Shown here piece after piece: positions 1,801-21,038 of a stretch of 26,732 nt of DNA. Origin of the DNA: an uncultured Pirellulales bacterium (GTDB lineage: Bacteria; Planctomycetota; Phycisphaerae; Sedimentisphaerales; Anaerobacaceae). The translations under genes were made by a program, and so were the position numbers. The DNA lies in assembly GCA_964622085.1 (NCBI GenBank), contig CAZUPG010000001.1:6478-33209 (forward strand), read 5' to 3'. Every line of letters begins with the position of its first letter. The first letter of the stretch is position 1. Below the pieces are notes generated by a model that made no database searches, was not told the DNA's origin, and saw only the letters and a list, made by a program, of their open reading frames with translations.

Positions 1801-1812
1801 ATGACTTCGCTT

Positions 1813-4182: not shown

Positions 4183-4245
4183 TTTTATTTCCTTGTTGTC
4201 TAAATTTTCACATTCTCACAAAAACCTATAAGCACGGTTAACCTA

Positions 4246-4272
4246 TTATCGTTGAAAAACGCTTTTTGTTTA
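4246..4272 (-). promoter_or_regulatory. Putative sigma-28 (FliA) promoter of fliD
   Basis: The - strand reads TAAA-caaaaagcgtttttc (15 nt)-AACGATAA, against the established consensus TAAA-N15-GCCGATAA. It lies 64 nt upstream of the fliD start; fliD is a typical sigma-28 target. Confidence 0.7.
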
Positions 4273-4273
4273 A

Positions 4274-5221
4274 TCAAAGTATCTCTACGAGCCGGATATC
4301 AAAGGTCAGGTCTTTTCCTGCCAGAGGATGGTTGGCCTCCAATGTTACGCTCGATTCGGAGACATCGGCCACCACGACCTTAATTACTCTGCCGTCCGGC
4401 TGATGGTCTTGTAACTGCTGGCCCACCTCCGGCTTCAAGTGCTTCGGAAACTGGTCTCGACCTATTATCTGTGTCATTTCTTTACGGTGCGGGCCATACG
4501 CATTGTCTGCCGGTATTTTGGCGGTCTTAGATTCACCCACACTCATCCCGACCAAAGCATGTTCGAAGCCCGGGATTACCTGACCCTTACCTATCGTCAA
4601 CTGCAGAGGGGCACGGTTAACGGATGTATCGAATATCGTGCCATCTTCCAGTTTGCCGGTGTAGTGCACCCCAACAGTATCACCATATTTTGCCTGCAAC
4701 ATCGAGGACATTTCTAATAAATAAGCGTTATCAAATTGAAGGACCTCTCCCCATTTGCTCAATGTTTCTTTCGGCCAGGCAGAAATATGTTTTTCGTATT
4801 CGTTATTGTACAATGCCTCTTGCTGCAATACCCTTACCGGGGTTACTATCATAGCGAACCTGGATTTTTCTTTTATTAGATTTAATAAAAAGAGCCCGTC
4901 CTTTTCGCTGAGATGTTCCAATACATCACTGCAAATTATCATATCATAGTCACCCAGCGTGGGCAGGATATCTACTGCATTGCCAATATAAATGTTGTCA
5001 TAAATTTCCCGCTGTAATTGCCCTATATATTTTTCAAAAATTTCTATTCCGTCTATTCTGGTTTCAGGATTGAAATATCTGCCAAGCCGAACATCCGTAT
5101 ATTCTCTTGCAAGGAATCCGAACTTGCCAAACCCAATTCCTATATCAAGAACCGATACAGGATTTTTTTCAATTATCCTGTTACACACAGGGGCTAAAGC
5201 AGATGGTCTTGAGCACGGCAT
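4274..5221 (-). CDS. Class I SAM methyltransferase fused to an FKBP-type peptidyl-prolyl isomerase (SlpA/SlyD-like, insert-in-flap type)
   Basis: N-terminal part: 'VLDIGIGFGKFG' (SAM motif I), 'IDGIEIF', 'DVLEH'. C-terminal 142 aa from the ATG at 4702: 'GDTVGVHYTGKLEDGTIFDTS', 'IPGFEHALVGM', 'AYG', 'NHPLAGKDLTF'. No His-rich tail. RBS AAGGTG upstream of 5221. Confidence 0.9.
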   Translation of the reverse strand: MPCSRPSALAPVCNRIIEKNPVSVLDIGIGFGKFGFLAREYTDVRLGRYFNPETRIDGIEIFEKYIGQLQREIYDNIYIGNAVDILPTLGDYDMIICSDVLEHLSEKDGLFLLNLIKEKSRFAMIVTPVRVLQQEALYNNEYEKHISAWPKETLSKWGEVLQFDNAYLLEMSSMLQAKYGDTVGVHYTGKLEDGTIFDTSVNRAPLQLTIGKGQVIPGFEHALVGMSVGESKTAKIPADNAYGPHRKEMTQIIGRDQFPKHLKPEVGQQLQDHQPDGRVIKVVVADVSESSVTLEANHPLAGKDLTFDIRLVEIL

Positions 5222-5251
5222 ACACTTTCACCTTTCGAATCTTATGCTTAA

Positions 5252-5264
5252 CCGCCTTCGGCGG
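5252..5264. repeat. Small GC hairpin CCGCC-TTC-GGCGG
   Basis: 5-bp stem in the 66-bp gap between the mega-ORF and the MT-FKBP gene. No U-tract follows, so it is not a clear terminator. Confidence 0.35.
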
Positions 5265-5287
5265 AACCCCCAGGATAAACTTGGTGG

Positions 5288-8200
5288 CTAAACGGCTTGC
5301 AGTATTTTCTCATCATATTTTTGCCTGCCAAGCTCGCACTTTTGCAATAGCTGCCGGACCCGCTGGTTATTCGGGTCTATTTCGAGGCAGTCATTTAGCT
5401 CTGAACAGGCCTGCTCGAAAGCCATTTTGGCATAGACAGGCGACAAATTCGATTTTATATGCTCCTGGCCTATTGCAAGATAAGTCAGAGCAATCAAGCA
5501 TTTAGCATGCAATTGCCTCATATCAGGAGGTATCTTATCCCATGCAACGTCTGGAAACAGCTCATCGCAGCTGAAAGTATCCGTAAACCGCTTGAGAACC
5601 TCAAAATGGCTCCTGACTTTATCAGGATTTATAGTCCTCGACAGACTTTCCGGGTGCATTCGCCTCAGATGCAAGGCCTGCCGTAAATGGTGTTCCTTCA
5701 GGCCTGCCTTTACGAAACGTCTCATCATATCATAGTCCATACCCACTATTAGTTTTTCATCGTAAAGGCCTATCTTGTCGTAAACGCTCCTTCTTATGCC
5801 AAGTCTAAACGGTACTATCGGATGCCCGTGTCGGAACAGGTCTCTAATCAGATGCCTTCGGTCCTGATACTCGGGCTTATCCATTACCTTTATCGGCTCA
5901 CCGTCAGCATCAATCAGCAAGACATCGCAATATACAAGGTCGGCCTCGGGATGTTTCTCAAATTCCGCCAGGTGCTTGGCAATAAAGCCCTGTGTCATCA
6001 CATCATCTGCATCGAGAGGCATAATATATTGCCCTTTGGCCCGCCTTACGGCATGGTTTAGGGCATTGGACATGCCGCCGTTTTCCTGGTAGAAATATCC
6101 AATTCTTCCATCGTCATAACATGAAATCACCTTACTGGTATTGTCCGTAGAGCCATCGTCGATGATTATAAGTTCAAATTCTGGATAGTCTTGAATCAGG
6201 ACACTTTTTATTGCCTCGCCGATATACTCAGCGCCATTGTAAACAGGCATTATTATGCTAACCGGCGGGCCGCTCGTGCTGTCCTGATGCAAAGAGAGGA
6301 CAGAAGACAGAGGATGGTGATGGATGAGGGACGAAGGACGAGAGACGAGAGACGAAGTGGCTTCTGACATCTGATTTCCGACATCTGACCCTTCGACTGC
6401 GCTCAGGGCAGGCTTCTGACTTTGTTGGGAGACGGGGTTAACTGCTGAACCCGCAGCAGTAGCACGGCCATCCTGGCCGTGCTTGCACGGGCTGGAAGCC
6501 CGTGCTACGAGAGCATCAATTTCTCCGAGCATCTGAAGTACCTGGGCATCTTCGCCAACATTTGCCAAATAATTTAAGAGAAGTGTTTTGGCTTGCCTGT
6601 ATTTGCCGGATGCTTTCAATATCGCATAGCAATTAGTGATAGTATTCCTGTCCCACGGATTGAATTTGTATGCCTTAGTAAAGTATCTAAAAGCATTTTT
6701 TGTATCTCCGGCCTCCATCGCCATCAGCCCGTAATCATTCAGTGCCTTGACGTGGTTGGGAAATTTTTCCAGCAGCTCTTCGATTTGCGCATTAGCTTTT
6801 AGCACATTTGCCTGCAACAACAGTACATCCGGATGATTCGGGTATTTCTGCAATAACTGTTCGCATTCAAGGTCAGCCTGTCCGGTATCATTATTTTCGA
6901 GCAACTTCTCTATAGTATTAACTTCTCTGGCAATATTGATTCTGTCCCACAGTTTCGAAATATATTCCGGAGCTTTGTCTGTGCTGAAATTTTCTCGTAC
7001 AAAATCAACCGCTCTGTGGCGGATAGACGGGTCGGCGTCGACCATCTTCAAGCCGGCGATTATTGTCTCTGCCAGTTTTTCAGGCGTATTAGGTAAATAT
7101 AACAGGCCTGTCCGCCCATCAGCTAAGGTGGCAGCCGTACCTCCGGCATCATGCGCAGCGGGGATACACCCGCATGCCTGTGATTCCAGGATTACCATCG
7201 GGAAAGTTTCAAGCTTTGAGGGCAGGACAAGCAGGCTGTGCTTTGAATAGATTTCCGGCATATCTTTATTGTTAACATAGCCATGAAAATATGTACCTTC
7301 CGGTTTTGTGCTCTTGAGATTATCTCCATAGGCATCTCCACCGCGCCACATCGAACCATCCCCATAAATGTGCAACTCGGCATCACTTATCTGCCGGCGG
7401 ACTAATCGGAAAGCGTCCATAAGAATGTGAACACATTTATGAGGATGTAATGCACCCGCATACATTATAGAGTGATTGTCCCTTTCGACATCTTTCGGCG
7501 AATACACATCTGTATCAATAGGGTTGGGAATAATCAGGAACTTTTCATTTCCGATGCCGTGATTATGCAGTGAGGCCCTGTGTAACTCCGATAGACAAAC
7601 CACTATGTCGAAGTCGCTCATATGTGACAACGATACGAGGTCGTCAGCCTGCCAACAGTGCTGCCACAGTATCCAAATCTGTCCCTGAGGCTTAGTCAAA
7701 CCTTTGAAGTGGCGAATGTGCGTTGCGAAAAACACCACATCATAATTTGCAAGGAACTGCTCTCTTTCGCTAATCTGCGGTAACGGAACAAAGTGCAAAG
7801 ATTCATACTGCTCCGGATGAGTTACAAGATTGCCGGTTATGTGAGCTTCTATGCCGTGGCTGTCGCGAAGCATTCTTGCGACGTTCAGTACAGCCATTAC
7901 CGTCCCTGCAGGACTGGTTTCACTGATGTTGCCTATTCTGTCATAATAGAACAGTATCTTTTGTTGACCGACACGTGGCGGCAACATATCCGGTACCCGA
8001 TCAAAATCAGGTCTGATGCTTAAGAGCTTCTCCAAACTGCTACGTGCTCCAACAAGGTCACCCTCGCTTTTCTGTAACATCATCAGAGCAAAAAGTCCCT
8101 GCCAGTCATCTTTTTTCGCTTTCTCCACCGCTGCCTTGTAATCCTCAAATGCCTCACTGACCTGACCCCGACGCCTCCGTATTAGTCCACGCCAGAAGTA

Positions 8201-11200
8201 CGGCAGTCCACGTTCAGGGTATTTTTCAATTGCTTTAAGGATTTCTTCATAAATGCTATCCGGACAGTTCGCAATCACCTGCCAGGCCTGAACCAGGCTT
8301 GTAACTGTATATAAATCAGGATGACAGGTAGCTATAAAGGCCCAAGCCAACCTTCGGTTATGCTTGATCGTCTTATGATACATGCTCTGAGGATTTATTC
8401 GATAAAGGAAAAGTTTTTCCTCTATCCGTTTAACAACAGGATTGTGCTTTGAACAACCAATCCAGAAATTCCAGTCTTCCGGCTGAACGATAACGCTTAA
8501 CAGGTTATCATACCCACCAACTTTGCGCCAAAGCTCCTTCCTGTAAAGGGACGCGTAAGGCATGGTGTTCTCAAGCATAACTCTTGACCTTGAGTACTTA
8601 GCAGGTACCCATTCACCATTTGAAGTCCCGAATTCCTGCAGGCTAGCAAAGACGATATCCACCTTTTGTTCCTGCTGGATAATATCCACCGCCTTTTGCA
8701 TAAACGTCGGTTCAAACATATCGTCACTATCCAGCGGTAAAATCCACTCATTCACGGCAGCCAATATTGCCGTATTTCTCGTATCTGCCAATCCAGTATT
8801 TTGTGGTTTGTCGATAAGCCGAATCTTATGATTTGGATACTTTTCTATTAACTGCCTTGTAACCTCAACAGTATTGTCGGTGCTGCAGTCATTGACAATA
8901 ACACATTCCCAATTTTTATACGTTTGATTTATAATAGACTCAACCGCCTCAGGAAGATAACGTGCCTGATTGTAGCACGGGACAATTACTGATATTCCGA
9001 CTGCATTGTCACCAGCTTTTTTGAAATAGAAGTCTACTTCCTGATGAACCGCATTGCTCACAAAGCTGGTATACTTGCTTATGTCAATAATCATTCCCTG
9101 CTGATAAGTTTGCGCCAATCTTTCAGGGCTGTAGTCCTCATTTATGCCTGACCTATTTTGCTCATATACGTTCTGAACCTTATTAGCCGGGTTGCAGAAA
9201 GTTACACTCGTACGGCAGCAAAGCAGCATTGGCCGGCTGTTCTCGAACTGCCTGTTTGAAGCCATTTGTGATTCCAGCTCATTCGGATTTGAAAAATCTC
9301 GTTCGGACAGAAAATCTAACATTTCCTTCGAGCGATAAACCGAGCTTGAGACCTCCAGCGGATAGCCGAAATCCCGCTCGGCCGCAGTCCAGTCGTATTT
9401 CACTATAGAATCTGTGAGTTTTTCGAACGGAGGAAGTTTCTGCAGGGAATTTAACATATAACAATAAGTTGTATTTTCACCCAGCCGAAGCGAAAAACCA
9501 ATCGCATCGGCCTCTCTATCCAAAGCATCAGTTACATCTCCGATGTAAAAGTCGCGGGTATAGATGTCGTCATCCACCATAAACAGAATGTATTTAAACG
9601 CTTCTATGACCTGCAGTGTCTGCTGTCTAAAATCTCGCTCTTCAATAAAGGTAATATCCTCGAAGCATTTTTTTAAATCATCATATTGACCTTTATGTAA
9701 TGGGGTAGTGGCTTTGTAAAGTATTGTCAGATGGACATTGTTGCTGTCTTTACAATGCAATAGGAACGATTCTATCGTTGCTCTAAGCTGCATTGCCCGG
9801 TCCTTACTGAAGATTAGGGCGGCAGAGTCTTTTTGGGTCTGCTCTTTTTTTTGCTTTTGGCTGCTCTGGAACCTTTCGGTGATTAAATCGATGTCATGCT
9901 CGATTATCTTTTTGTTCTCAGCGGTCGCTCTTGTGTGAAAGGATGATATTCTCTTTATAAGAGCTGATGATATTCGCTGCTTGGTGGCTTCATCCAATCT
10001 GTGCTCGATGTATGGTACTGTTTTGAAATAAAAATATAGAATATCCTTGTGACCAAGTTGATTTGCTTCCAACTTTGCAGATAAATTCCCTGACCATTGT
10101 CTGCAGTATGCAAGCATTTGGTCTAAATAGTAAAAATTTTTGCTTTTTAAGATTCTACACCACATATCAATGTCTGCTGCACAGCCGACGGCTGTATCAA
10201 AATCCCCAGCTTTGTTAATATCATCTCTTCGAAAGAGTATTGCTGCTGGCCATCCTACCGGCCTCTTTCCCAAAAGATAATTTTTGATAAATTCTTCACC
10301 ATTCTCTTTTGTGCTTTCATTAAATAGCTTGTATAGATTGTTACTATTTTTTATGTTGCTATCCTCATCAACGATAAAGCAATTACAACAAACAACTCCG
10401 ACGTCAGGATGTTCATTTAGAATCTTTACCTGTTCAGCGACACAATTATTTTCGAGTATGTCATCATCTCCTATTATTTTGATATACTCTCCCGAGGATA
10501 ACGACACAGCCTTATTCCAATTCTTTATGAACCCTATGTTCTCTTCATTTCTGACAAACGTAATACGCTCTATGTCAGAGTAGGCCTTCGAGAGTTTTAT
10601 GGTTTCGTCTGTAGAACAATCATCTAAAACCAGAATTTCTATGTTGGAGTAAGTTTGATTGAGAGCGGAATCTATCGCTATTTTGAGATAATTTACTCTA
10701 TTGAAGGTCGGGATTAGTATAGATACCTTTGGTATTTGTTTTTTAGGACTAACATTTTTACAACTATGGGCAGCACAGATTATGAAGTCTTTTTTGTCAA
10801 TATGGTTTTCAATGTTGTGAGTTTGGTAGTTTTGGTATTTAAAAAACTCAGGCGCAAGACCATTTGCGGATAACCATCGCTTAATTTTTTCCTCATCAAT
10901 ATAAAACGTCGAATGAAAACCCATGTTAATTGCTTCCGGGCTTCTCTCTTGCATATAAGGTGTTGAAAAAATAAGTGTCCCACCAGGTTTAAGTGCACGG
11001 CTAAAAACTCTAAACAATTTAGGGATGTCATCTTCGGTTAGATGTTCAACTGTCTCAAAAGAAACGATATAATCAAATAGAGATTGATACTTTAAATCCA
11101 GTAGATTTGCATGAACAAATTCAATATTCTGGATGTTTTTGTAACGAACTCTTATTTCCTTTATGACTTTTTCGTCAATATCTACGCCAATTACCCGGTT

Positions 11201-12958
11201 AGACTTTTCTGCCAGCATAACGCTGCCGTAACCTGTCCCGCACGCAAAATCTCCGACTACTTTTCCAGGCGAAATGATAGATTTAGCGTACTCATATCTG
11301 CGGCAGTGACTCTTTTGATATATATCCAATTCATCGAATTTGGTATTTCCCTTGTAAAATATATCAACACGCTCGCCATTACCGTCTAAGTTGGTTTTGC
11401 CCGGCAGGGTGACAGAATCGCCTGCCAGCCCAGAGACGCCAATAGACTCAGGGTCATTTGCCTTCGCATAAATATCTCCCCATAGCAACTCGTTATCCAG
11501 GTGCTCTATGTGATGAAACAGCATCTCTGAAGAAACCCATTCTGAGAACACAAATTCCGGTCTTTCCCCCAAGCATAAATTAAAATGCTTGTATCCGAGA
11601 GCCTGTAAATGAAGTAAACACTTCCTGGCATTTTCCAAGAATTCGATTGCGAATTCAAATGCAATATAGGGGACCGGCTGAGAAAGACCTTTTAAGACCG
11701 CAAGCTCAAAACCTTCTACATCAATCTTGCAAAATTTCGGACGTCCATAAACTTCTATCATTTCATCCAATGTCGTGACTTCCACTGGAATGACTCTATC
11801 CCAAGAATAGTCAGTAAATCTGCCGGTTTTCCATTCATCAGAAAATGTCGAAATAGTATTTGCCTTGCTGCATATCGAAAGTTGCATTTGCCCGGCCTCG
11901 CCTGCAAGACCGTTGTCCACGATAGTTACGTTCTGATTATTCTGATACTTTTCGCGCAACACTCTTACACACTCTGGTTGTGGCTCAAAACAAACCACGT
12001 GAGCACCCTTCATAAGATATACATCAGTTTTTGAGCCAACATTTGCACCCACGTCAAATACAATATCCCCCTCACCAATCCAATCATTAACGACGAGACT
12101 TTCGCTTTCGGGTTGCATACATAGTTGCGTATCCAAGTCACCCTGCTCTCGCACCGTGTTAACTTTACCTGGCTTGACCGCCTCCCTCTTGGCTGACGTT
12201 TGAATATTGCCCGGCAGGGGGACAGAATCGCCTGCCAGTGCGGCCCGAAGCTGGTTTTTCCAAGCTTCCCAAGTTGGCCTCTCTTCCTGGGCAACGGTGC
12301 TTTCCAACAACAATTCCTCCGCCACTTTTAGTTGCTCTTGTAAGCAAAAGGGTTTAGATTTCACAGCAACAACCGTCACGTTCGATAAATAAGGTTCTTT
12401 AGACCATGAACTTGACAGCGTTTGGATCTCCCCAAACCCCAATGCTCTGAGCGTGTGCTCGAACCTCTCAGGGAACCAGTGATCAATATGATAGCCCCAA
12501 TTAGCTGCCTGGTCTCCAGCCAAGTGGCGAACAACTCCCATTTTAATCTTCCATGAGGTATCAGAAACCAGCATTCTTGCGCTAGCTATCAGGTCGGGTG
12601 TCTCGATATGAAGCCTACCCCCAATTTTCAACCACTTGTTCCATTTAATCAGCATAGCAAGTGCTGTAACCCGGCTAAAGTGCTCAAAAACGTGATGAAG
12701 CCGTATCTCGTCAACTGACCCAAGAGGGAAATCCAGGCTCTTTATATCAGCGTAAACATCCGCTTTTACCCGCATCAAATTATGTTCGGATTGGGGATAA
12801 TCAATATTTATATAACCGTCAAAATGCCGCTCTCCACAACCAAGATGAAGCCGAAGCGCTATGCCCTCTTGCCACAATCCGAAATCTTTAAGCTGCTGCA
12901 ATACATCAATATCGTTATCGATGATCTTGGCACAGTTGCTTTCTATCTGAGCCATCAA
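5288..12958 (-). CDS. 2556-aa multidomain glycosyltransferase/methyltransferase: MT, FkbM-MT, MT, GT2, GT-A-like, GT2, TPR, GT4, TPR, repeat-derived linker, GT2, helical/TPR-like tail
   Basis: Approximate modules: MT1 12860-12340 ('LHLGCG..GYINID'); FkbM 12090-11460 ('FDVGANVG', 'KIDVEGFE'); MT3 11380-10760 ('GDFACGTGYG', 'FETVEH'); GT2 10735-9900 ('SILIPTFNR', 'DDCSTD', 'GDDD'); GT-A-like 9830-9020 ('IFSKDRAMQL', 'VDDD'); GT2 9000-8350 ('SVIVPCYNQ', 'LDSDD'); TPR 8260-7990; GT4 7965-6940 ('ETFPMVILE', E-x7-E); TPR 6920-6520; GT2 6270-5620 ('SIIMPVYNG', 'LDADD'). Start is TTG at 12958 or ATG at 12955. Confidence 0.9.
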   Translation of the reverse strand: MMAQIESNCAKIIDNDIDVLQQLKDFGLWQEGIALRLHLGCGERHFDGYINIDYPQSEHNLMRVKADVYADIKSLDFPLGSVDEIRLHHVFEHFSRVTALAMLIKWNKWLKIGGRLHIETPDLIASARMLVSDTSWKIKMGVVRHLAGDQAANWGYHIDHWFPERFEHTLRALGFGEIQTLSSSWSKEPYLSNVTVVAVKSKPFCLQEQLKVAEELLLESTVAQEERPTWEAWKNQLRAALAGDSVPLPGNIQTSAKREAVKPGKVNTVREQGDLDTQLCMQPESESLVVNDWIGEGDIVFDVGANVGSKTDVYLMKGAHVVCFEPQPECVRVLREKYQNNQNVTIVDNGLAGEAGQMQLSICSKANTISTFSDEWKTGRFTDYSWDRVIPVEVTTLDEMIEVYGRPKFCKIDVEGFELAVLKGLSQPVPYIAFEFAIEFLENARKCLLHLQALGYKHFNLCLGERPEFVFSEWVSSEMLFHHIEHLDNELLWGDIYAKANDPESIGVSGLAGDSVTLPGKTNLDGNGERVDIFYKGNTKFDELDIYQKSHCRRYEYAKSIISPGKVVGDFACGTGYGSVMLAEKSNRVIGVDIDEKVIKEIRVRYKNIQNIEFVHANLLDLKYQSLFDYIVSFETVEHLTEDDIPKLFRVFSRALKPGGTLIFSTPYMQERSPEAINMGFHSTFYIDEEKIKRWLSANGLAPEFFKYQNYQTHNIENHIDKKDFIICAAHSCKNVSPKKQIPKVSILIPTFNRVNYLKIAIDSALNQTYSNIEILVLDDCSTDETIKLSKAYSDIERITFVRNEENIGFIKNWNKAVSLSSGEYIKIIGDDDILENNCVAEQVKILNEHPDVGVVCCNCFIVDEDSNIKNSNNLYKLFNESTKENGEEFIKNYLLGKRPVGWPAAILFRRDDINKAGDFDTAVGCAADIDMWCRILKSKNFYYLDQMLAYCRQWSGNLSAKLEANQLGHKDILYFYFKTVPYIEHRLDEATKQRISSALIKRISSFHTRATAENKKIIEHDIDLITERFQSSQKQKKEQTQKDSAALIFSKDRAMQLRATIESFLLHCKDSNNVHLTILYKATTPLHKGQYDDLKKCFEDITFIEERDFRQQTLQVIEAFKYILFMVDDDIYTRDFYIGDVTDALDREADAIGFSLRLGENTTYCYMLNSLQKLPPFEKLTDSIVKYDWTAAERDFGYPLEVSSSVYRSKEMLDFLSERDFSNPNELESQMASNRQFENSRPMLLCCRTSVTFCNPANKVQNVYEQNRSGINEDYSPERLAQTYQQGMIIDISKYTSFVSNAVHQEVDFYFKKAGDNAVGISVIVPCYNQARYLPEAVESIINQTYKNWECVIVNDCSTDNTVEVTRQLIEKYPNHKIRLIDKPQNTGLADTRNTAILAAVNEWILPLDSDDMFEPTFMQKAVDIIQQEQKVDIVFASLQEFGTSNGEWVPAKYSRSRVMLENTMPYASLYRKELWRKVGGYDNLLSVIVQPEDWNFWIGCSKHNPVVKRIEEKLFLYRINPQSMYHKTIKHNRRLAWAFIATCHPDLYTVTSLVQAWQVIANCPDSIYEEILKAIEKYPERGLPYFWRGLIRRRRGQVSEAFEDYKAAVEKAKKDDWQGLFALMMLQKSEGDLVGARSSLEKLLSIRPDFDRVPDMLPPRVGQQKILFYYDRIGNISETSPAGTVMAVLNVARMLRDSHGIEAHITGNLVTHPEQYESLHFVPLPQISEREQFLANYDVVFFATHIRHFKGLTKPQGQIWILWQHCWQADDLVSLSHMSDFDIVVCLSELHRASLHNHGIGNEKFLIIPNPIDTDVYSPKDVERDNHSIMYAGALHPHKCVHILMDAFRLVRRQISDAELHIYGDGSMWRGGDAYGDNLKSTKPEGTYFHGYVNNKDMPEIYSKHSLLVLPSKLETFPMVILESQACGCIPAAHDAGGTAATLADGRTGLLYLPNTPEKLAETIIAGLKMVDADPSIRHRAVDFVRENFSTDKAPEYISKLWDRINIAREVNTIEKLLENNDTGQADLECEQLLQKYPNHPDVLLLQANVLKANAQIEELLEKFPNHVKALNDYGLMAMEAGDTKNAFRYFTKAYKFNPWDRNTITNCYAILKASGKYRQAKTLLLNYLANVGEDAQVLQMLGEIDALVARASSPCKHGQDGRATAAGSAVNPVSQQSQKPALSAVEGSDVGNQMSEATSSLVSRPSSLIHHHPLSSVLSLHQDSTSGPPVSIIMPVYNGAEYIGEAIKSVLIQDYPEFELIIIDDGSTDNTSKVISCYDDGRIGYFYQENGGMSNALNHAVRRAKGQYIMPLDADDVMTQGFIAKHLAEFEKHPEADLVYCDVLLIDADGEPIKVMDKPEYQDRRHLIRDLFRHGHPIVPFRLGIRRSVYDKIGLYDEKLIVGMDYDMMRRFVKAGLKEHHLRQALHLRRMHPESLSRTINPDKVRSHFEVLKRFTDTFSCDELFPDVAWDKIPPDMRQLHAKCLIALTYLAIGQEHIKSNLSPVYAKMAFEQACSELNDCLEIDPNNQRVRQLLQKCELGRQKYDEKILQAV
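6294..6420. repeat. Two oppositely oriented 7-mer tandem arrays, in frame within the mega-ORF
   Basis: Purine-rich array GAGAGGA CAGAAGA CAGAGGA ... GGGACGA AGGACGA GAGACGA GAGACGA (6294-6355), then pyrimidine-rich TTCTGAC ATCTGAT TTCCGAC ATCTGAC ... TTCTGAC (6362-6420). A 10-bp direct repeat GGCTTCTGAC occurs at 6359-6368 and 6411-6420. Confidence 0.75.
6390..6414. repeat. 24/25-bp REP-like element (family B), encoding 'PALSAVEG' on the - strand
   Basis: CCTTCGACTGCGCTCAGGGCAGGCT, flanked by TCTGAC on both sides. It matches the nested insert at 21091-21114 at 18/24 positions. Confidence 0.7.
6459..6508. repeat. GTAG-type REP doublet (REPIN-like, family A), in frame within the mega-ORF
   Basis: GTAG-CACGGCCA-TCC-TGGCCGTG on the + strand and GTAG-CACGGGCT-TCC-AGCCCGTG on the - strand: two inverted GTAG-tagged hairpins. 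Translates as VARASSPCKHGQDGRAT. Confidence 0.85.
11397..11428. repeat. 32-bp direct repeat, copy downstream of the FkbM module
   Basis: TTGCCCGGCAGGGTGACAGAATCGCCTGCCAG; 31/32 identical to 12207-12238. Confidence 0.95.
12207..12238. repeat. 32-bp direct repeat, copy upstream of the FkbM module
   Basis: TTGCCCGGCAGGGGGACAGAATCGCCTGCCAG; exactly 810 bp from the other copy. Confidence 0.95.
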
Positions 12959-12991
12959 TAGTTTTCCCCTTGTTAAAACTCGTCTCTTTAA

Positions 12992-13324
12992 TCAAATACT
13001 ACTGCGGTAAGTCTCTATAGTCCTTCTGCCTTTGCGAACCCGGTTTAGCTTTTCGCTGGTTTCGGTTTTCGCAGCGGTGATGGCCAGACATAGACTATCG
13101 TATAATTTCGCTAGACGCTCACGTTGCCCCGCATTAAATGCGGGGTCGGCCAGTTCAAGAATCCCTGTCTGTGCGATTTTTTCCACAAGAAAACCGACCT
13201 GCTCGCCCAAAATCTCAACATCGTTAATGTTACCCTGCCGAGCCATCTCTATCTGCTTTTCTAACAGATAACGCAAGTCCCTTAATTCGGATAAAAATTG
13301 TGATGTCTGTTTATCTGCCCTCAT
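12992..13324 (-). CDS. Small helical protein, putative FliT/FlgN-like flagellar export chaperone
   Basis: 110 aa, predicted helical ('LRYLLEKQIEMARQG...LVEKI...LAKLYDSL'), ending 'RKGRRTIETY' like FlgN/FliT-type chaperones. ATGA overlap with the upstream TPR gene. The family call is by resemblance and context only. Confidence 0.5.
   Translation of the reverse strand: MRADKQTSQFLSELRDLRYLLEKQIEMARQGNINDVEILGEQVGFLVEKIAQTGILELADPAFNAGQRERLAKLYDSLCLAITAAKTETSEKLNRVRKGRRTIETYRSSI
13127..13145. repeat. Palindrome CCCCGCAT-TAA-ATGCGGGG (family D), in frame in the 110-aa gene
   Basis: 8-bp perfect stem of the same design as CCCCGCGT-AAA-ACGCGGGG at 22612-22630. Encodes DPAFNAG. Confidence 0.65.
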
Positions 13325-13959
13325 CTAATCTGAATTCCTGTCTGTTTTTTTTGAGCCAAACTATGCTCAACTTCCTCCAGAAGATTAGCTGCATCTTTAT
13401 GGCTGGCGTCCAAAGTTAAAACGTCCAGGAGCATTTTTTTGGACTGCTCAAACCTGCCATCCTTCATATATAGTGCTGCCAGAGAGAACATGACGGAGGC
13501 GTCACCTGGGTGCATGTCCAGATATACCTCAAGATAGTGGGTGACTTTCTCAAATGAACCCATCTTGCAGGAAGCCTGGAACAGGCCCAAAAGAGCTATC
13601 AGGTTGTCGGTGTCCAGCTCCAGGCATTTTAGATATTTCTCAAAGGCCTGCTTGTAATCGGCTCTTTGCTGTGCGACCATAGCCAGACCGGCATAAGCCT
13701 TGGCACAATCAGGGTCGAGCCGACAAGCTACCCTAAAAGCCGTATCAGCATCGTCTAAGAGATCCTTTTGCAGGGCAACTACTCCAAGGCCAACGTAAGG
13801 ACCTGGCTCGTCGGGCCCCAGTGACGCTGCTTTTTCATAGCACTGTTGTGCCTGTGCGTAGCTGCCAACAGAGGTATAACAATCACCGAGCTCTTGCAAA
13901 ACTTCATAATGCTGGGTCGGCTCATGCTGTTCAGTGATATTATTTTGTGTTATGCCCAT
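13321..13959 (-). CDS. Stand-alone tetratricopeptide-repeat protein
   Basis: Consecutive TPR-like units ('LGDCYTSVGSYAQAQQCYEKAASLGP', 'AYAGLAMVAQQRADYKQAFEKYLKCLELD'). The ATG at 13959, preceded by GAAGGG, is a better start than the ORF-track start at 14034. Confidence 0.85.
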   Translation of the reverse strand: MGITQNNITEQHEPTQHYEVLQELGDCYTSVGSYAQAQQCYEKAASLGPDEPGPYVGLGVVALQKDLLDDADTAFRVACRLDPDCAKAYAGLAMVAQQRADYKQAFEKYLKCLELDTDNLIALLGLFQASCKMGSFEKVTHYLEVYLDMHPGDASVMFSLAALYMKDGRFEQSKKMLLDVLTLDASHKDAANLLEEVEHSLAQKKQTGIQIR

Positions 13960-15616
13960 AGCAATTTTTCCCTTCAAGTATTTGTTCTGCTTTTTCGAGT
14001 AGTTCAATCGCGGGGTTAAAATTCTTTTTTTCACGTTTGACCTTTGCCTCTAACAAAAGCGTCTCTACCGTAGGACGCCGCCGGTTAACTTCGCAGCTGA
14101 TTTCAAGTGCCCTGGTATGATTACCGGCTTTGAAAAAGGCCTTTGCGGCCAATGTCTCCATCCATATTTCGTTTTGGTAATGGTCGGCGATATATTCAAA
14201 TATCTGCGATGCTTCCACCCAGCTTCCATCTTTTCCCGCTGACTGGGCCTGCTGAAGTAATTTATCAAACTGAAACGGGATTTCCTCAGGACGCAGGCGC
14301 CTTATTACAATACCGGCGGCCTTTAGAGACTCGCGAACTGGCAAATTTGGAAAGCTCGCACGAGCATACTGTAAGTCATCTTTTCTGACCACCGCTGCCC
14401 AGAGCTTATCTGTTGAGCCTTCCAGTTCAAATCCCTCGCGGTTAACTGAGGGGTCCCCAGACATTCCTTTTTGCGTTTGTGGGTCCTCTGAACTGTTAAT
14501 CAGAGCATAAAGTGAATCCTCCACCCAAAATTCCCTTATAGGAAATCCGCTTGGTACTAAAATAATATATTCGCCGTCACATCTGGCCAAGGCTGCGTCT
14601 ATGCGCTGGGCCTCAGATACCTGTGGGGCAACCGGCACGTAGATTATGTTGGGCATATCTGTGTTTAGCCTGTTGAAATCAGCTTGCGGCAGCGGCAGAT
14701 AAACCTCGTAGGGATAGAAGGTATGCCGCCAAATAGAACCGAGCGTTTTTCCCGCTTGTTTGTTCAGTCGGTCCGTAGCAAAAATGATAGACATATCCTT
14801 AATCTTTGGCCAGGGCTTGGGTGGCCTTGTGGTTCGTATCGCCAGGACATTCCTGGTGTACTCACTCTTATCTTTGCGCCGCTGCACCGAGATCCTGTCG
14901 GATTCACCAACAGGGCTGTAGAATTCGCCCGTGATTTCGTGGACGTGGTAAAAATCTGAGAAAAAAGCCAACCGCCGGGTTAAGTCCCAGTCAATTAGAA
15001 TGTTAAGGTCCTCATTATAAGGCCCGACCTTTTCAAGTAAATCCCTGCTGTGCATCAGGCTTACATGCAGCGAATGATTGAAGTAGAGCATAAGAAAACG
15101 GTCGAAGTCTCTGCTGACTTCAACAACTTTGCTCAAAATTTGTCGGCTGCCATCCGGCATAATTTTACAATATGCTTTGTACAAGTCACTGTATGCAACC
15201 TGGCAGTCGGTTTCATTTTCGAGGGCATTGACTAATGTTTCAATATGACTGGGATAATACAAATCATCGTCGTCAAGGTAGGCGATATATTTGCCTTCAA
15301 CTCTGCTTATAGCTTGGTTGAGAGAAAAGGCCTTGCCGCGGCTTGCTTTTCTGTTAATAAATGTAAGCCGCGGGTCGTTAAATGAATTAACTACATCGCT
15401 TACGTCCTCACCGCCGTCATTGACTACAATAACCTCCAGATTTCTGTAACTCTGGCGTAAAACACTGTTCAGGGCCTCATATAAATATCGGGGCCGGTTG
15501 AAAGTCGGAATAAGGACACTGACAACTGGCTTGGCCTTTATCTGCGTCCCCAAACACATTTCATTGCATTTGGGGTTCTCCTTATAGTTTTCTGTCATTC
15601 CAAAACTACCTAACAT
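13940..15616 (-). CDS. GT2-family glycosyltransferase with a degenerate second GT-like region and C-terminal TPR-like helices
   Basis: 'VSVLIPTFNRPRYL', 'VNDGG', 'YLDDDD'. The true start may be the ATG at 15598. Confidence 0.88.
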   Translation of the reverse strand: MLGSFGMTENYKENPKCNEMCLGTQIKAKPVVSVLIPTFNRPRYLYEALNSVLRQSYRNLEVIVVNDGGEDVSDVVNSFNDPRLTFINRKASRGKAFSLNQAISRVEGKYIAYLDDDDLYYPSHIETLVNALENETDCQVAYSDLYKAYCKIMPDGSRQILSKVVEVSRDFDRFLMLYFNHSLHVSLMHSRDLLEKVGPYNEDLNILIDWDLTRRLAFFSDFYHVHEITGEFYSPVGESDRISVQRRKDKSEYTRNVLAIRTTRPPKPWPKIKDMSIIFATDRLNKQAGKTLGSIWRHTFYPYEVYLPLPQADFNRLNTDMPNIIYVPVAPQVSEAQRIDAALARCDGEYIILVPSGFPIREFWVEDSLYALINSSEDPQTQKGMSGDPSVNREGFELEGSTDKLWAAVVRKDDLQYARASFPNLPVRESLKAAGIVIRRLRPEEIPFQFDKLLQQAQSAGKDGSWVEASQIFEYIADHYQNEIWMETLAAKAFFKAGNHTRALEISCEVNRRRPTVETLLLEAKVKREKKNFNPAIELLEKAEQILEGKNCYGHNTK

Positions 15617-15634
15617 TCTTTTATTAGCTAAAAA

Positions 15635-17137
15635 TCACACACTCGGGTTCCCATTTTGCGATTTATTGCAAAATTGGGGCTCAGTTTGTTGCGAATCTAC
15701 TTCAGCTCCAAGTTGAGCGAAAATATCATTCACTTTGTTCAACTGATTTTTCAACGCGTAGTTCTCTTCAATAAATTTGCGATACCTTTGGGGTTCGTAT
15801 GTATCAGAGAGAATCTGTTCGCAGAATTCTTCGGAGATGTTAAATAAAAACTCTGATGGGAAAATCTGGCTTGCCCCCGGAAAATTATGGATAACCGGCT
15901 TCAATCCGCAGGCCATACCTTCCAACAGTCCCATACCCTGACTTTCTATAATGCTCGTGGAAACGATGTAATCTTTATCCGCAAGCCAGGAACTCACATC
16001 CTGCTGCCAGCCATCAAAAAACACTACATCGCCGAGGTTAAGAGCATCAACCATATGCCTTACATACTGTTCGAGGGCCTTATCCTGGAAGGAACCAGCA
16101 AAGAACAACCGATAGTCGTGGTCGATGTAGCGCAGCTTTTGCATACACTGCAGAATGAAAGCAGGGTTCTTTACCATTCTCAGATTGGCCAAAAAAGCAA
16201 TATTTTTGCAGCGTCTGCGATTTGTATACGTAAATTTTTGAAGATTTACGCCATTGGGAATAGTAACTATCGACGTTTGGCCTTCGAGATTGGGAACTGC
16301 CTTGATAAGAGCATCTTTAACAAAACTATTGCCGACGATTATAAGGGCGTCGATATTGGCCCAGTCGATTTCGAGCGGCCAGTGAAGATAGGCCTCGTAT
16401 CGGTGCAGTCTAATAATGCTTTTGCAAACTTTAGGCATCTTCGAGGCGGTCACGGCAAGATTGGTGCACCACTCGAACCAGGAGATATCGCTCCACTCCA
16501 TCATTTCATACAGTTGTTCTTCTGTTTGGCCTTTGAAAAGGCGCGTTTCAAAACGCTGCTTTGTGAACTCGGCAATTTCGTTGAGAAAGGTCATACCGTC
16601 GCCGCCGCAGAAGAAGGCGATCTTGGGTCTTTTGCTTCGGATTACTTCAATCATTGGTTTAAGAATCCCCTGCTCGGGCCAGATTGTTAGTGAGTGAAGC
16701 AGCATTTCGATAGCGTCGCCCTTTCTATTCTGCTGCAGCAACACGTTGGCCGTTCTATTAAGTACGTCCACATTCAATATGCCCAACAACTGCATATCGT
16801 CAAAAAGCTGCATTGCTTCTTTTGCTTTGCCGACAGCAAGATAGCTTTCAGCCAAATTCCAAACTATCTCAGCGCTATTGGCCTGTAGGCTCTTTGCTTT
16901 GACAAAATGATTGATGGCTTCGTCCGAGCGGCCCAGGCAATAGAGAATTGCCCCTACATCGTTCAGTACCTGTGCATCGTCGGGCGCCGTGCGAAGATGT
17001 TTTTGAATACAATCGAGAGCTTCCTGATATTTGCCGGCTTCAGCTAATTCCAAACCTCTCTGGTAATAATTGGGGTCTCCAAACACACTATTTTGCGTTT
17101 GGTGCACCTTCGAATCTGTCCCCTGTACCATCTGCAT
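15635..17137 (-). CDS. TPR-containing GT4 (GT-B fold) glycosyltransferase
   Basis: N-terminal TPRs ('AQVLNDVGAILYCLGRSDEAINHFVKA'), 'WSDISWFEWC', 'RLHRYEAY', 'IPNGV', and the GT4 E-x7-E motif 'ESQGMGLLE'. AGGAG spacing favours the ATG at 17131. Confidence 0.88.
   Translation of the reverse strand: MQMVQGTDSKVHQTQNSVFGDPNYYQRGLELAEAGKYQEALDCIQKHLRTAPDDAQVLNDVGAILYCLGRSDEAINHFVKAKSLQANSAEIVWNLAESYLAVGKAKEAMQLFDDMQLLGILNVDVLNRTANVLLQQNRKGDAIEMLLHSLTIWPEQGILKPMIEVIRSKRPKIAFFCGGDGMTFLNEIAEFTKQRFETRLFKGQTEEQLYEMMEWSDISWFEWCTNLAVTASKMPKVCKSIIRLHRYEAYLHWPLEIDWANIDALIIVGNSFVKDALIKAVPNLEGQTSIVTIPNGVNLQKFTYTNRRRCKNIAFLANLRMVKNPAFILQCMQKLRYIDHDYRLFFAGSFQDKALEQYVRHMVDALNLGDVVFFDGWQQDVSSWLADKDYIVSTSIIESQGMGLLEGMACGLKPVIHNFPGASQIFPSEFLFNISEEFCEQILSDTYEPQRYRKFIEENYALKNQLNKVNDIFAQLGAEVDSQQTEPQFCNKSQNGNPSV
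15644..15682. repeat. Palindromic repeat, family C, in frame at the 3' end of the TPR-GT4 gene
   Basis: CGGGTTCCCATTTTGCGATTTATTGCAAAATTGGGGCTC; about 32/40 identical to 20477-20516 by hand alignment. Confidence 0.7.
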
Positions 17138-17192
17138 TACTCCTTGATAACTTCGTTCTCAAACTATTTTGTGTTTGGGGTCCCACTTTACA

Positions 17193-18395
17193 CTATTCAA
17201 GAAAATCCAGCAGCGATATAGACATAAGTTTTCCAGCTACTGATAACGACATTTGGTACAGAACCTCACGACGAGAGAGGTCTATGGCAATCTGGGCAAT
17301 GTCGGCTTCCTGCAAACGGGTGATTTCATCTTCCGCATTGAACTTTATATTCTCAAAGCTGTCTTTGAGATTGTCAAGGAACCCGATTTTTGACCCTATA
17401 GAAACAGATTTCTGTACCAAAAGATTGTGCACCTCTTCCAAAGAACCTATTGAATTTTTTATCGCCTCCATCAATTTAGTGCCAGAGAGCTCCCTTTCAT
17501 TTTTCAATATATCTCGAACACTAATAAGTGTGTCGAATATGTCATAAGTCCCTGGCATGCGCACCATATCGACTCCGGTACCGGTTATTCCGGTGGTATC
17601 AACATACAAAACCTCACCAGTGTCGGCGTGGGTCACCATTGTATTCGCATCACCCGGCGGCACAGTTACCTCCGTATAGCTCGTCGGGTCATCGTCAATT
17701 GACAACCTGTATGGAGTACCTGGTCCACCCGGCTGGGTTATCTCAAGCCAGACATCTCCTCGGACGCTCGATGTGCCGGTGCCGGCTTTAGCTCCGGTAT
17801 CACCAAGGAAAGTCGGGGCGCTGCGGCTGTTCGAACGAAAGATGTCATCGCCTGCGTAAAAAACGCTGGATTGCACCCCGGGAGCCACCTCTATATTTCG
17901 ACTCTCACTACTGCCCTGGTAAGTTACACTGGTAATTTCTCCATTAGTGCGCTCTACAAGATATGGTGCCGAGGATGTATTGCTTCCTCCAAAAAAGTAT
18001 TGGCCCATACGTTTGGTACTAGCCAACGATACTATCTGCTCTAAGGCATCGTCGATTGCTTCTGCGAGCCCGTCTCGCCCCTCTTCCCCATAGGTGCCAC
18101 CGACAATTTGCGTTAGATGTGCTCTCTTCTCAGCAAAAACCGACATCATATCATCAATAACGGTGGAGGAAAGCTCCAGTGTGCTAATGGCCTCTGATAT
18201 ATTATTCGTATAATTTCCCAGAGACTTTTGCTGAGAGTTGAGCCCTAAAACCTGGTGTGCAGCAGAAGGGTCATCAGAAGCTCGGTTTATCCGCGAACCG
18301 GTCGATGCCTGTTCCTGCAAACGAGTCATTGCCTCGCTATGCAGATACAAAGCAAAGCTGATATTATTATAAATACTACTAAGATTTCCACTCAT
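17193..18395 (-). CDS. flgL: Hook-filament junction protein FlgL (HAP3)
   Basis: 'LQEQASTGSRINRASDDP', 'YFFGGSNTSSAPY', C-terminal 'LQEADIAQIAIDLSRREVLYQMSLSVAGKLMSISLLDFL'. Follows flgK. Confidence 0.95.
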   Translation of the reverse strand: MSGNLSSIYNNISFALYLHSEAMTRLQEQASTGSRINRASDDPSAAHQVLGLNSQQKSLGNYTNNISEAISTLELSSTVIDDMMSVFAEKRAHLTQIVGGTYGEEGRDGLAEAIDDALEQIVSLASTKRMGQYFFGGSNTSSAPYLVERTNGEITSVTYQGSSESRNIEVAPGVQSSVFYAGDDIFRSNSRSAPTFLGDTGAKAGTGTSSVRGDVWLEITQPGGPGTPYRLSIDDDPTSYTEVTVPPGDANTMVTHADTGEVLYVDTTGITGTGVDMVRMPGTYDIFDTLISVRDILKNERELSGTKLMEAIKNSIGSLEEVHNLLVQKSVSIGSKIGFLDNLKDSFENIKFNAEDEITRLQEADIAQIAIDLSRREVLYQMSLSVAGKLMSISLLDFLE

Positions 18396-18411
18396 TTATA
18401 CCTCTGCGTAT

Positions 18412-18458
18412 CACGGCCAGGCCTGTCCCGAGCGAAGCCGAGGGGATGGCCGTGTTAC
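18412..18458 (-). repeat. Family A REP half-element carrying a nested 24-bp family B insert, in the flgK-flgL gap
   Basis: The - strand reads GTAA-CACGGCCATCC-[CCTCGGCTTCGCTCGGGACAGGCC]-TGGCCGTG. Confidence 0.8.
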
Positions 18459-18462
18459 CTTT

Positions 18463-20448: not shown

Positions 20449-20476
20449 TTATTAACTCCGTTTGAGCAGCAGTTTT

Positions 20477-20516
20477 CGGGGTTCTCATTTTGCAATTCAT
20501 TGCAAAATGTGGTCCC
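20477..20516. repeat. Palindromic repeat, family C, in the flgN-flgK gap
   Basis: Perfect inverted repeat CATTTTGCAAT / ATTGCAAAATG (20486-20509) with GGGGTTCT and TGGTCCC flanks; starts immediately after the flgN stop. Confidence 0.75.
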
Positions 20517-21038
20517 TCAAAACTGCAAGTTTACAAAAGCCGTGTCAGTTTGACGTTTGGTAGAACCGTTGGAGTTGTATGTAACCGTTCCTGTCCTGCC
20601 AAAGTCAAAGACGCTCTTCAAAAGCACATTGTTGAATCTGGCACAATCTGATAAAAGCAACATCGTACCTAAATGTGCTTTCTTAAGCTCATCAGTCAAG
20701 GACCTTAATTTTGCTTTTCTCTCGGCTACTTGAGCTTTTTTTACTCCCGACAATTCATATTCGATTCTGGACAGAGTCATTTGCCGGAGATTACAGTCCA
20801 AAGCGGCCGCCAATTCCTTTCGTATCGACTGCCGTTTTAATTCATTTGCCGAATAGCTGTCTGATTCACCTTGAATGCTCTCGAGCAGTTTGCCCAAAGA
20901 GGCATCATCGCGCTTGACCACAAAAGCACGCAGTTTATCCAATCGTGACAAGCTCTGCTGTATATGCCTAGCATCCTCATCGAGACAAAGGAGCAGCTCG
21001 TCGATTTTATCTTCTATTCCAACCACCGTTACTTCCAT
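20517..21038 (-). CDS. flgN: FlgN-like export chaperone for FlgK/FlgL
   Basis: 173-aa helical protein in the canonical flgJ-flgN-flgK position ('KRQSIRKELAAAL...MTLSRI...LRSLTDELKK...FNNVLLKS'). Confidence 0.7.
   Translation of the reverse strand: MEVTVVGIEDKIDELLLCLDEDARHIQQSLSRLDKLRAFVVKRDDASLGKLLESIQGESDSYSANELKRQSIRKELAAALDCNLRQMTLSRIEYELSGVKKAQVAERKAKLRSLTDELKKAHLGTMLLLSDCARFNNVLLKSVFDFGRTGTVTYNSNGSTKRQTDTAFVNLQF

Follow-up and report, generated by a model that had tools for sequence, protein, structure and literature searches.

What does a 13-kb block of sugar- and methyl-transferring enzymes do in the middle of a flagellar gene region? The question is raised by a stretch of 26,732 nucleotides, hereafter the window, which spans positions 6,478 to 33,209 of contig C1 (CAZUPG010000001.1, assembly GCA_964622085.1) of an uncultured Pirellulales bacterium that GTDB places in the order Sedimentisphaerales of the Phycisphaerae. 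The assembly is a fragmented metagenome-assembled genome (MAG) of 1.94 Mb in 349 contigs, 81% complete and with 45% GC, and sequence near-identical to the window is present in several salt-marsh metagenomes. Six genes encoding glycosyltransferase (GT), methyltransferase (MT) and tetratricopeptide repeat (TPR) domains, collectively the island, are embedded here in the late flagellar region flgN-flgK-flgL ... fliD. We propose that the locus is a cytoplasmic, TPR-targeted O-glycosylation island for flagellar proteins, specific to the Sedimentisphaerales and with its acceptor and glycan inferred, and we put the probability of this reading at roughly 0.65. The domain content, predicted solubility, conserved synteny, cassette turnover and sugar pathways of relatives on which it builds are directly supported. 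The island genes and the two genes that bound them are as follows.

17193..18395, minus strand: flgL, which bounds the island upstream (TIGR02550 match above cut-off at 184 bits).
15635..17137, minus strand: 500-residue TPR-GT4 protein, the first gene after flgL (Pfam TPR_1/2; Glycos_transf_1, 62 bits).
13940..15616, minus strand: 558-residue GT2 protein with a TPR-like tail (Glycos_transf_2, 98 bits).
13321..14034, minus strand: 237-residue TPR-only protein (multiple Pfam TPR families).
12992..13324, minus strand: 110-residue helical FliT/FlgN-like protein (sub-threshold profile matches, fold model).
5288..12958, minus strand: 2556-residue multidomain protein, the giant (Pfam and fold model).
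4274..5221, minus strand: 315-residue MT-FKBP fusion, the last gene before fliD (FKBP_C, 77 bits; MT families, E 1e-4).
1813..4182, minus strand: fliD (789 residues), the downstream boundary of the island (FliD_N and FliD_C).

As the first-pass annotation had described them, the six genes share one orientation, are packed tightly between flgL and fliD (window positions 4274-17137) and encode seven GT domains, four MT domains and many TPRs, the last in four of the six proteins; Pfam and fold modelling agree on this inventory, with two of the four MT domains, those in the N-terminus of the giant and in the 315-residue protein, falling below the Pfam cut-offs. Gaps between the island genes range from -4 to 91 nt, save for one apparent 95-nt overlap that shrinks if the 237-residue gene starts at M25 (position 13962), its likely true start given that the alignment of its orthologues (57-84% identical) begins at about residue 26. 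Along the minus strand the order is flgF, flgG, flgA, flgH, flgI, a FlgJ-N-like gene, flgN, flgK, flgL, the six island genes and fliD, with fliR and flhB on the plus strand past fliD. A Pfam scan of every open reading frame (ORF) of at least 100 residues in the window, frames nested inside genes excepted, identified fliR, flhB, fliD, the island, flgL, flgK, flgN, the FlgJ-N-like gene, flgI, flgH, flgA, two rod-protein genes and a PilZ-like ORF, and it returned no fliC, fliS, fliW, maf or nucleotide-sugar gene; csrA is likewise absent from the window, because the intergenic gaps are too short to hide one. Every absence claimed at first reading therefore stands.

Close inspection of the proteins encoded next to flgL reveals a combination of TPR modules and transferase domains. 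In the 500-residue protein an N-terminal TPR block (about residues 20-160, with Pfam TPR matches at 24-115) precedes a C-terminal GT4 domain of the GT-B type (Glycos_transf_1 at residues 311-428), whose EX7E motif reads ESQGMGLLE at residues 398-406. Almost every genus of the family has an orthologue of it, at 55-71% identity, and orthologues were also found in three further families of the order, where the identities span 44-71%; a narrower range, 44-53%, was obtained for other families as well. A search of PDB sequences with the whole protein returned TPR proteins only, including the TPR region of OGT, and the GT part was not matched. In the 558-residue protein an N-terminal GT2 domain is followed by a conserved stretch of unknown fold, and the C-terminus has a weak likeness to TPRs (ANAPC3 and TPR_12 matches, E 0.003-0.01). 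An alignment of 17 sequences of this GT2 has a mean column identity of 56% and an invariant D116-D118 within its DDDD motif, and no orthologue was found in 200 evenly sampled Planctomycetota genomes outside the order. The 237-residue protein matches generic TPR families in NCBIfam, including SycD/LcrH, all below cut-off; across the island proteins NCBIfam yielded generic TPR and GT families far below cut-off and no named flagellar glycosylation family, and in none of the six did Pfam (E up to 0.01) give a MAF_flag10/DUF115 match. Solubility is predicted for all of them, since none contains a transmembrane helix: their 19-residue Kyte-Doolittle maximum is at most 1.3, compared with 2.9 for FliR and FlhB. 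In line with this, Pfam and the transmembrane scan revealed no initiating phosphoglycosyltransferase, flippase, polymerase or ABC exporter in the 13-kb island.

The arrangement is shared by relatives, which were compared in two samples. One comprises 29 regions, each of at most 20 kb, from genomes with orthologues of the 500-residue TPR-GT4 protein; the other, independent of it, stems from a search of a species-representative genome collection with a profile of the 558-residue GT2 protein, which recovered 406 relatives, the best 80 of them all Sedimentisphaerales-type MAGs. Counts from the second sample refer to the 79 best independent loci of these relatives, all from Sedimentisphaerales-type MAGs, and the denominator for each gene includes only those loci whose flank extends far enough. 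The order flgN-flgK-flgL, TPR-GT4, GT2, TPR, 110-residue gene recurs in the 29-region sample, and the order of the core genes is common to five families of the order. In the second sample flgL is present in 65 of 65 informative loci, the TPR-GT4 gene in 67 of 67, the TPR gene in 68 of 68 and the 110-residue gene in 66 of 68. The flagellar association proposed at first pass is thus borne out, the orthologues lying beside flgL in every informative locus and never in lipopolysaccharide or capsule loci, and the TPR-GT4/GT2/TPR/110-residue gene order that it singled out recurs across the order.

The slot between the 110-residue gene and fliD is hypervariable, measuring 0-10.5 kb and differing in content even within a genus. 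All loci with a GT2 gene and a visible fliD have a slot of 3.9-10.5 kb, and the five loci without a GT2 gene have an empty one, with 106-240 bp separating the 110-residue gene from fliD. This pattern points to joint action of the GT2 protein and the cassette. In three of the five cassette-less loci the first protein is TPR-only, so that no GT is left, and the TPR-only, TPR and FliT-like proteins are kept. The earlier description of the system as self-contained calls for qualification: a four-gene conserved unit is joined to a swappable cassette, and a second TPR-GT is encoded beside flagellin (see below). Other variants of the first gene were observed: in one locus (L058, 11263-13547) the TPR and GT4 parts are separate adjacent ORFs, with an additional 203-residue MT gene directly after flgL, and in other families the TPR-GT4 protein is extended to 936 residues (L055, 11337-14147) or present as two tandem paralogues (L056 and L057, ~11.4-14.8 kb; 34% and 45% identical to the protein of the window).

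What fills the slot is often a single very large enzyme. The largest slot ORF has at least 1200 residues in 30 of 55 readable slots and at least 2000 in 8 of 55, sizes that are lower bounds because the locus ends before many of the ORFs do, and the giants range from 1200 to 2980 residues. Among 26 complete giants, GT2 domains occur in 23, class I MT in 14, GT1/4 in 11, Methyltransf_24 in 7, radical SAM in 6, and FkbM and GT9 in 4 each. The Pfam tally of 115 smaller slot ORFs is headed by epimerase/dehydratase (23), GMD-like (20), RmlD-like (16), MT (15), radical SAM (13) and PseB-like (9) families, and no transporter family appears among its top 25. One slot (L050) holds NeuB, a NeuC-type 2-epimerase, a PglD-like acetyltransferase, a PseB-like dehydratase and a DegT aminotransferase, which together make up a predicted legionaminic or pseudaminic acid pathway; another (L035) holds GMD-like, RmlC-like, transketolase and TPR-MT genes. 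The radical SAM domains, in 6 of the 26 giants and 13 of the 115 smaller ORFs, are often accompanied by B12-binding and SPASM domains, a hint that the glycan may undergo unusual C-methylation or some other radical chemistry.

Across ~55 loci, 249 of 254 slot ORFs share the orientation of the flagellar genes, and only two of the 254, both in one locus, have three or more transmembrane-like segments. Being co-oriented and nearly free of membrane proteins, the slots resemble a cytoplasmic protein-glycosylation island rather than a polysaccharide export locus. The sole slot with multi-transmembrane proteins (L078, 14397-21206; CP070715.1, a complete MAG chromosome) encodes two of them, with four and six transmembrane-like segments, and the hot spot may here have received an unrelated insertion.

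In the window, the giant of 2556 residues displays this modular organization at full length. Its N-terminal half consists of an MT-like region (residues 1-230), an FkbM MT (291-500), a class I MT (546-720), a GT2 (735-1000) and a GT-A domain (1035-1320); its C-terminal half continues with a GT2 (1321-1560), a TPR block (1561-1650), a GT4 (1651-1985), a second TPR block (1990-2150), a linker (2151-2228), a last GT2 (2229-2460) and a TPR-like end (2461-2556). Pfam places the MT matches at residues 302-428 (FkbM) and 563-702 (class I MT) and the GT matches at about 743-950, 1322-1546 and 2231-2444 (GT2) and 1828-1971 (GT4), while the N-terminal 230 residues give a weak Methyltransf_11 match (E 0.006). 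Residues 1035-1320 are silent in Pfam, but a model built with seven aligned homologues (pLDDT 83, pTM 0.86) adopts a GT-A fold that matches GnT-I, TarP and SpsA at E 2e-8 to 1e-6 (probability 1.0), and the domain carries an FMVDDD motif. The EX7E motif is kept in the GT4 of the giant too, and so in both GT4 domains of the island.

The giant also appears to be a mosaic. Different pieces resemble separate relatives, with identities of 79-82% over residues 18-256, 79% over 521-940, 70% over 1031-1964 and 38-60% over 2213-2542, and the last of these is invariably found at the fliD-proximal end of giants. Three features stand out within the gene.

9959..11323, minus strand: low-GC block that takes in the class I MT and first GT2 (36-37% GC, against 45-48% in conserved flanking genes).
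11397..12238, minus strand: FkbM MT module bracketed by 32-bp direct repeats (copies at 11397-11428 and 12207-12238).
6275..6508, minus strand: GC-rich, low-complexity linker between the last GT2 and the remainder of the giant (58% GC).

The low-GC block suggests a compositional mosaic, and two linkers of the giant are GC-rich (55-58%). The two repeat copies are 97% identical and spaced by exactly 810 nt, or 270 codons, so that recombination between them would delete the FkbM module in frame. As for the last linker, contig depth over window positions 6235-6681 rises to 32.6 in one run (X1), against 4-15 in other bins, and in four salt-marsh runs numerous contigs break off at 6459-6505; this spike and the loose ends argue that the linker holds a short (REP-like) element, repeated at other places in the metagenomes and in frame within the giant ORF. 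Two overlapping contigs of another run (X3; 6275-6660 and 6646-7032) span the linker without differences. Mis-assembly of the giant ORF was considered and has no positive evidence in its favour: contigs of the four runs contained no rearranged joint on the island, at low coverage and with the linker spanned by two barely overlapping contigs. Low coverage and the one repeated linker (6275-6508) are thus the caveats, and we regard the giant ORF as credible as a class of protein, its exact continuity being less certain.

Enzymes that combine GT and MT domains are known from O-antigen and S-layer glycan synthesis, where WbdA/WbdD (E. coli O9a) and WsaE (Geobacillus S-layer glycan), like the giant, carry several GT domains and chain-modifying or capping MT domains in one polypeptide. 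Unlike the giants, which are predicted to be soluble, bear TPRs, belong to flagellar gene clusters and reach at least 11 modules, these enzymes act on lipid-linked glycans at the membrane.

The last gene before fliD encodes a different kind of fusion. Its 315-residue product combines a class I MT-like domain (residues 1-170) with an FKBP prolyl isomerase of the SlyD/SlpA type that includes the chaperone insert (residues 175-314); the FKBP_C match is above cut-off, the MT matches below. Sequence matches in the PDB to MtFKBP17 (1ix5), SlpA and SlyD extend over ~135 residues and span the chaperone (IF) insert. About 70 clusters of the same-length fusion exist at 63-84% identity, and although the gene is missing from many loci, all five contigs that were looked up and one further locus (L135) have it between a giant GT/MT gene and fliD. 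A stray housekeeping gene was rejected as an explanation, since the place beside fliD recurs in all contigs examined. The strong conservation of the fusion beside a variable giant points to a conserved protein, rather than the variable glycan, as its probable substrate, and the SlyD-like chaperone domain suggests that it acts on unfolded polypeptide.

For the small fourth gene of the core, called a chaperone gene at first pass, the likeness to FliT and FlgN holds at sub-threshold level, whereas a family match above cut-off did not materialize. The 110-residue protein alone has no Pfam match at E up to 0.01; against FliT it scores E 0.03 across the whole profile (15.5 bits, cut-off 29.5), and among 21 orthologues 11 match FliT (best E 6e-5) and 12 match FlgN, all sub-threshold. 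Its AlphaFold2 (AF2) model is a three-helix bundle (pLDDT 88), whose top 30 PDB fold matches include FliT of three species, 3h3m (probability 0.98, TM-score 0.56/0.67), 3nkz and 3a7m (TMq 0.65), plus 5gna, at E-values of 0.2-1.4 and with unrelated helical bundles scoring alongside the FliT entries. The family profile searched against PDB sequences returned a weak match to ribosomal protein S20 (E 0.005) and no FliT, which we treated as noise from helical composition. The protein resembles FliT in its all-helical build, its size, its recurrent sub-threshold matches and the position of its gene, which in the five cassette-less loci is directly upstream of fliD, but it scores under every curated threshold, has three long helices and is equally close to FlgN in Pfam. 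Because a true flgN precedes flgK and the gene abuts fliD where there is no cassette, our best guess is a FliT-like export chaperone, putatively for FliD. A GlfM-type adaptor, the separate helical protein of Maf-2 systems, was rejected as unlikely, the protein persisting in loci without any GT.

The flagellin itself is encoded elsewhere, as the first reading had anticipated. A whole-genome Flagellin_N search found only FlgL and one flagellin, on contig C19, where the gene order is fliG, fliF, fliE, flgC, flgB, fliK, a 546-residue TPR/GT9-like gene, a 334-residue GT1-like gene, a 269-residue flagellin and fliS. The flagellin, composed of D0/D1 only, is preceded (C19, L003, 8718-12493) by the 546-residue TPR protein, whose GT9-like C-terminus gives it a predicted FlmG-like layout. 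In a genome of the same genus (G001), a single contig carries the island, fliD, flhB/fliR, the fliG-to-flgB block, fliK, the TPR-GT, the GT, fliC and fliS, so that the flagellin follows fliD at a distance of ~22 kb within one flagellar supercluster. The flagellin-adjacent TPR-GT gene is found in one to three tandem copies (triplicated in L152) and the 334-residue GT1-like gene is divergent; NCBIfam gave both only generic families far below cut-off.

Several systems offer precedents for a TPR-guided transferase. Compared by layout alone, the 500-residue protein is like FlmG of Caulobacter and Brevundimonas, a cytoplasmic, soluble protein with an N-terminal TPR and a C-terminal GT-B domain. The TPR of FlmG binds to flagellin and is necessary for its glycosylation (PMC7591256), and FlmG substrates are short flagellins of ~270 residues with D0/D1 only, as is the 269-residue flagellin here. 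However, FlmG transfers pseudaminic or legionaminic acid, whereas the assembly here has no NeuB and the GT scored as GT4; in addition, the 500-residue gene lies beside flgL rather than in an flm cluster, alongside the GT2, the free TPR protein and the giant. In the Maf systems of Shewanella and others, acceptor specificity comes from a TPR module or else from a small, free-standing helical adaptor: the C-terminal TPR of Maf-1 has the same role as that of FlmG, while Maf-2 uses the adaptor, GlfM (bioRxiv 10.1101/2023.12.03.569772). Fused and split versions of these systems interconvert, just as TPR-GT4 is mostly fused here, split in one genome and TPR-only in three. Maf systems differ in that their MAF_flag10/DUF115 domain is not in the island and in that the small helical protein here is FliT/FlgN-like and kept in GT-less loci. 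GmaR of Listeria, a flagellin O-GlcNAc transferase with GT domain and TPRs (PMC3150276), resembles the 558-residue protein in having an N-terminal GT2-type domain followed by non-catalytic regions with TPR-like repeats; GmaR is also an anti-repressor that acts with MogR. The TPR-like part of the 558-residue protein is C-terminal and weak.

At the level of the locus, the closest parallel is with flagellin glycosylation islands (FGIs; P. aeruginosa flgL-fliC, Geobacillus, Enterobacteriaceae), in which a cluster of GT, MT and sugar-pathway genes directly follows flgL, as here. One report (PMC5109656) describes FGI content as highly variable between close relatives, with signs of horizontal exchange. 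The island shares with FGIs its embedding among late flagellar genes, but it has neither flagellin adjacency nor nucleotide-sugar genes of its own, and it differs from them in its order-wide four-gene core, in a variable part that is often one enzyme of 1200-2980 residues and in the MT-FKBP gene, with no flagellin in or beside it. What is new relative to known FGIs is therefore an order-wide conserved locus, away from flagellin, in which a fixed TPR/GT/chaperone-like core is combined with module-swapping giants and a recurrent MT-FKBP. Our literature searches for flagellar glycosylation in Phycisphaerae or Sedimentisphaerales gave nothing relevant.

By analogy with these systems we infer that glycosylation takes place, and likewise its acceptor, the sequence of its steps and what the MT domains methylate. 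By comparison with FlmG and Maf-1, the TPR modules of the core probably capture axial export substrates while these are still unfolded in the cytoplasm, ahead of export. Flagellin, by far the most often glycosylated flagellar protein in studied bacteria, would be the most likely acceptor, being the usual one in other systems, with FlgK, FlgL or FliD as possible alternatives. The conserved GT4 and GT2 would add the first sugars, after which the 2556-residue giant probably elongates the glycan directly on the protein and decorates or caps it with methyl groups; in relatives, other giants or nucleotide-sugar pathways would fill the same cassette slot. The MT domains of the island could act on sugar or on protein. 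The FliT-like protein probably chaperones FliD, and the semi-conserved MT-FKBP encoded before fliD would work on unfolded polypeptide.

A number of observations weigh against the proposed glycosylation island. The GT-less loci of three genomes imply that the TPR proteins have a role independent of glycosylation, and the MT matches of the 315-residue protein and of the N-terminus of the giant fall short of the Pfam cut-offs. The assembly, an 81% complete MAG, contains no NeuB and the island no sugar-nucleotide genes. The flagellin gene is not adjacent, and in 12 of 41 relatives (~30%) it is flanked by a TPR-GT and a GT that could be the real flagellin transferases. A scan of positions 1700-21200 for sigma-70 promoters and terminators gave counts at the level of shuffled sequence, and a single operon is thus not demonstrated; the runs listed by a general search, none aimed at RNA, are all from salt marsh and apparently typed as DNA, with no RNA run among them. 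Finally, no cultured organism carries the locus.

The GT-less loci raise the possibility, which we consider improbable, that the core TPR and FliT-like proteins serve mainly as export chaperones or regulators for FlgK, FlgL, FliD and flagellin, with the GT activity secondary or regulatory in the manner of GmaR and the decoration optional. Three genomes do keep the series flgL, TPR-only, TPR, FliT-like, fliD without a GT, the 110-residue protein resembles FliT/FlgN, and GmaR provides the precedent of a GT-TPR protein with a second, regulatory function; the sub-threshold matches of the TPR proteins to the SycD/LcrH class II type III chaperones, however, are no better than those to the generic TPR families PrsT and MamA. 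The catalytic motifs of both GT4 and GT2 are invariant across the order and the GT2 gene co-occurs strictly with the glycan-enzyme cassette, neither of which favours a secondary role for glycosyl transfer, and a chaperone function would in any case be compatible with a glycosylation island rather than exclusive of it. Very unlikely, in our view, is a glycan that is not attached to protein at all, for example a glycolipid or a polysaccharide of envelope, sheath or holdfast type, co-regulated with the late flagellar genes through lifestyle switching. GT2, GT4 and FkbM domains are typical of polysaccharide loci, the best NCBIfam matches are TuaG, EpsE, WcaA and PglI (all far below cut-off) and the multidomain GT-MT enzymes mentioned above belong to O-antigen and S-layer synthesis. 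Yet the 13-kb island lacks an initiating transferase, flippase, polymerase, ABC exporter or any transmembrane protein, membrane proteins are nearly absent from the 254 slot ORFs, and no membrane component of a Wzx/Wzy- or ABC-dependent polysaccharide locus was found in the island, nor any transporter family in the top 25 of the slot tally for relatives; moreover, the position among flagellar genes is strict in every informative locus and the enzymes bear TPR protein-binding modules.

A third possibility accepts protein glycosylation but assigns the island to FlgK, FlgL or the unusually long FliD, leaving flagellin to the TPR-GT and GT on the fliC side. The geography is suggestive, with the island exactly between flgKL and fliD, the MT-FKBP and FliT-like genes position-locked relative to fliD, and flagellin ~22 kb off with its own TPR-GT (one to three copies) and GT. 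We nevertheless rate this division of labor as highly improbable, because just 12 of 41 relatives have the flagellin-adjacent TPR-GT, while nearly the whole family has the flgL-fliD core, and flagellin is the commonest glycosylated flagellar protein. Taken together, the flgKL-fliD position, the fliC-side TPR-GT and the GT-less loci keep FlgK, FlgL and FliD in play as acceptors, and with them a chaperone role for the TPR proteins.

A bolder version of the flagellar glycosylation island, which we judge unlikely, would make the giants protein-docked assembly lines: held on an unfolded export substrate by their own TPRs and by the conserved TPR proteins, one polypeptide would build a defined oligosaccharide stepwise and cap it with methyl groups, and entire catalytic modules, swapped through recombination at repeated linkers, would alter the surface chemistry of the flagellum, with MT-FKBP as a hitherto undescribed chaperone-coupled protein methyltransferase that has FliD or flagellin as its substrate.

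Knowledge of flagellar glycosylation comes mainly from pathogens and a small number of model bacteria, and the process usually involves nonulosonic acids and Maf- or FlmG-type enzymes. The locus described here points to a different organization across an order of uncultured sediment planctomycetes, with a fixed core and one hot spot that exchanges glycan chemistry, where as many as five GT and three MT domains are often stacked in single proteins of 1200-2980 residues. If the proposed function is correct, the fused, split and GT-less loci would constitute a natural series for studying how TPRs choose acceptors, the giants a collection of soluble multi-GT enzymes that might serve glyco-engineering, and the MT-FKBP a candidate chaperone-coupled methyltransferase. 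Such a hypervariable surface locus is likely to be shaped by phage or grazer pressure in sediments.

Some minor features of the neighbourhood deserve mention. FliD is long in the window (789 residues) and ranges from 677 to 818 residues in relatives, which indicates an insertion of variable size in the cap protein. One relative (L143, 15717-16943) carries a HEPN/RES-domain, toxin-gene-like gene between fliD and flhB. At the other end of the window, upstream of the rod-protein genes, a 271-residue ORF (25892-26707) has a faint PilZ match (E 0.024) and may encode a YcgR-like flagellar brake.

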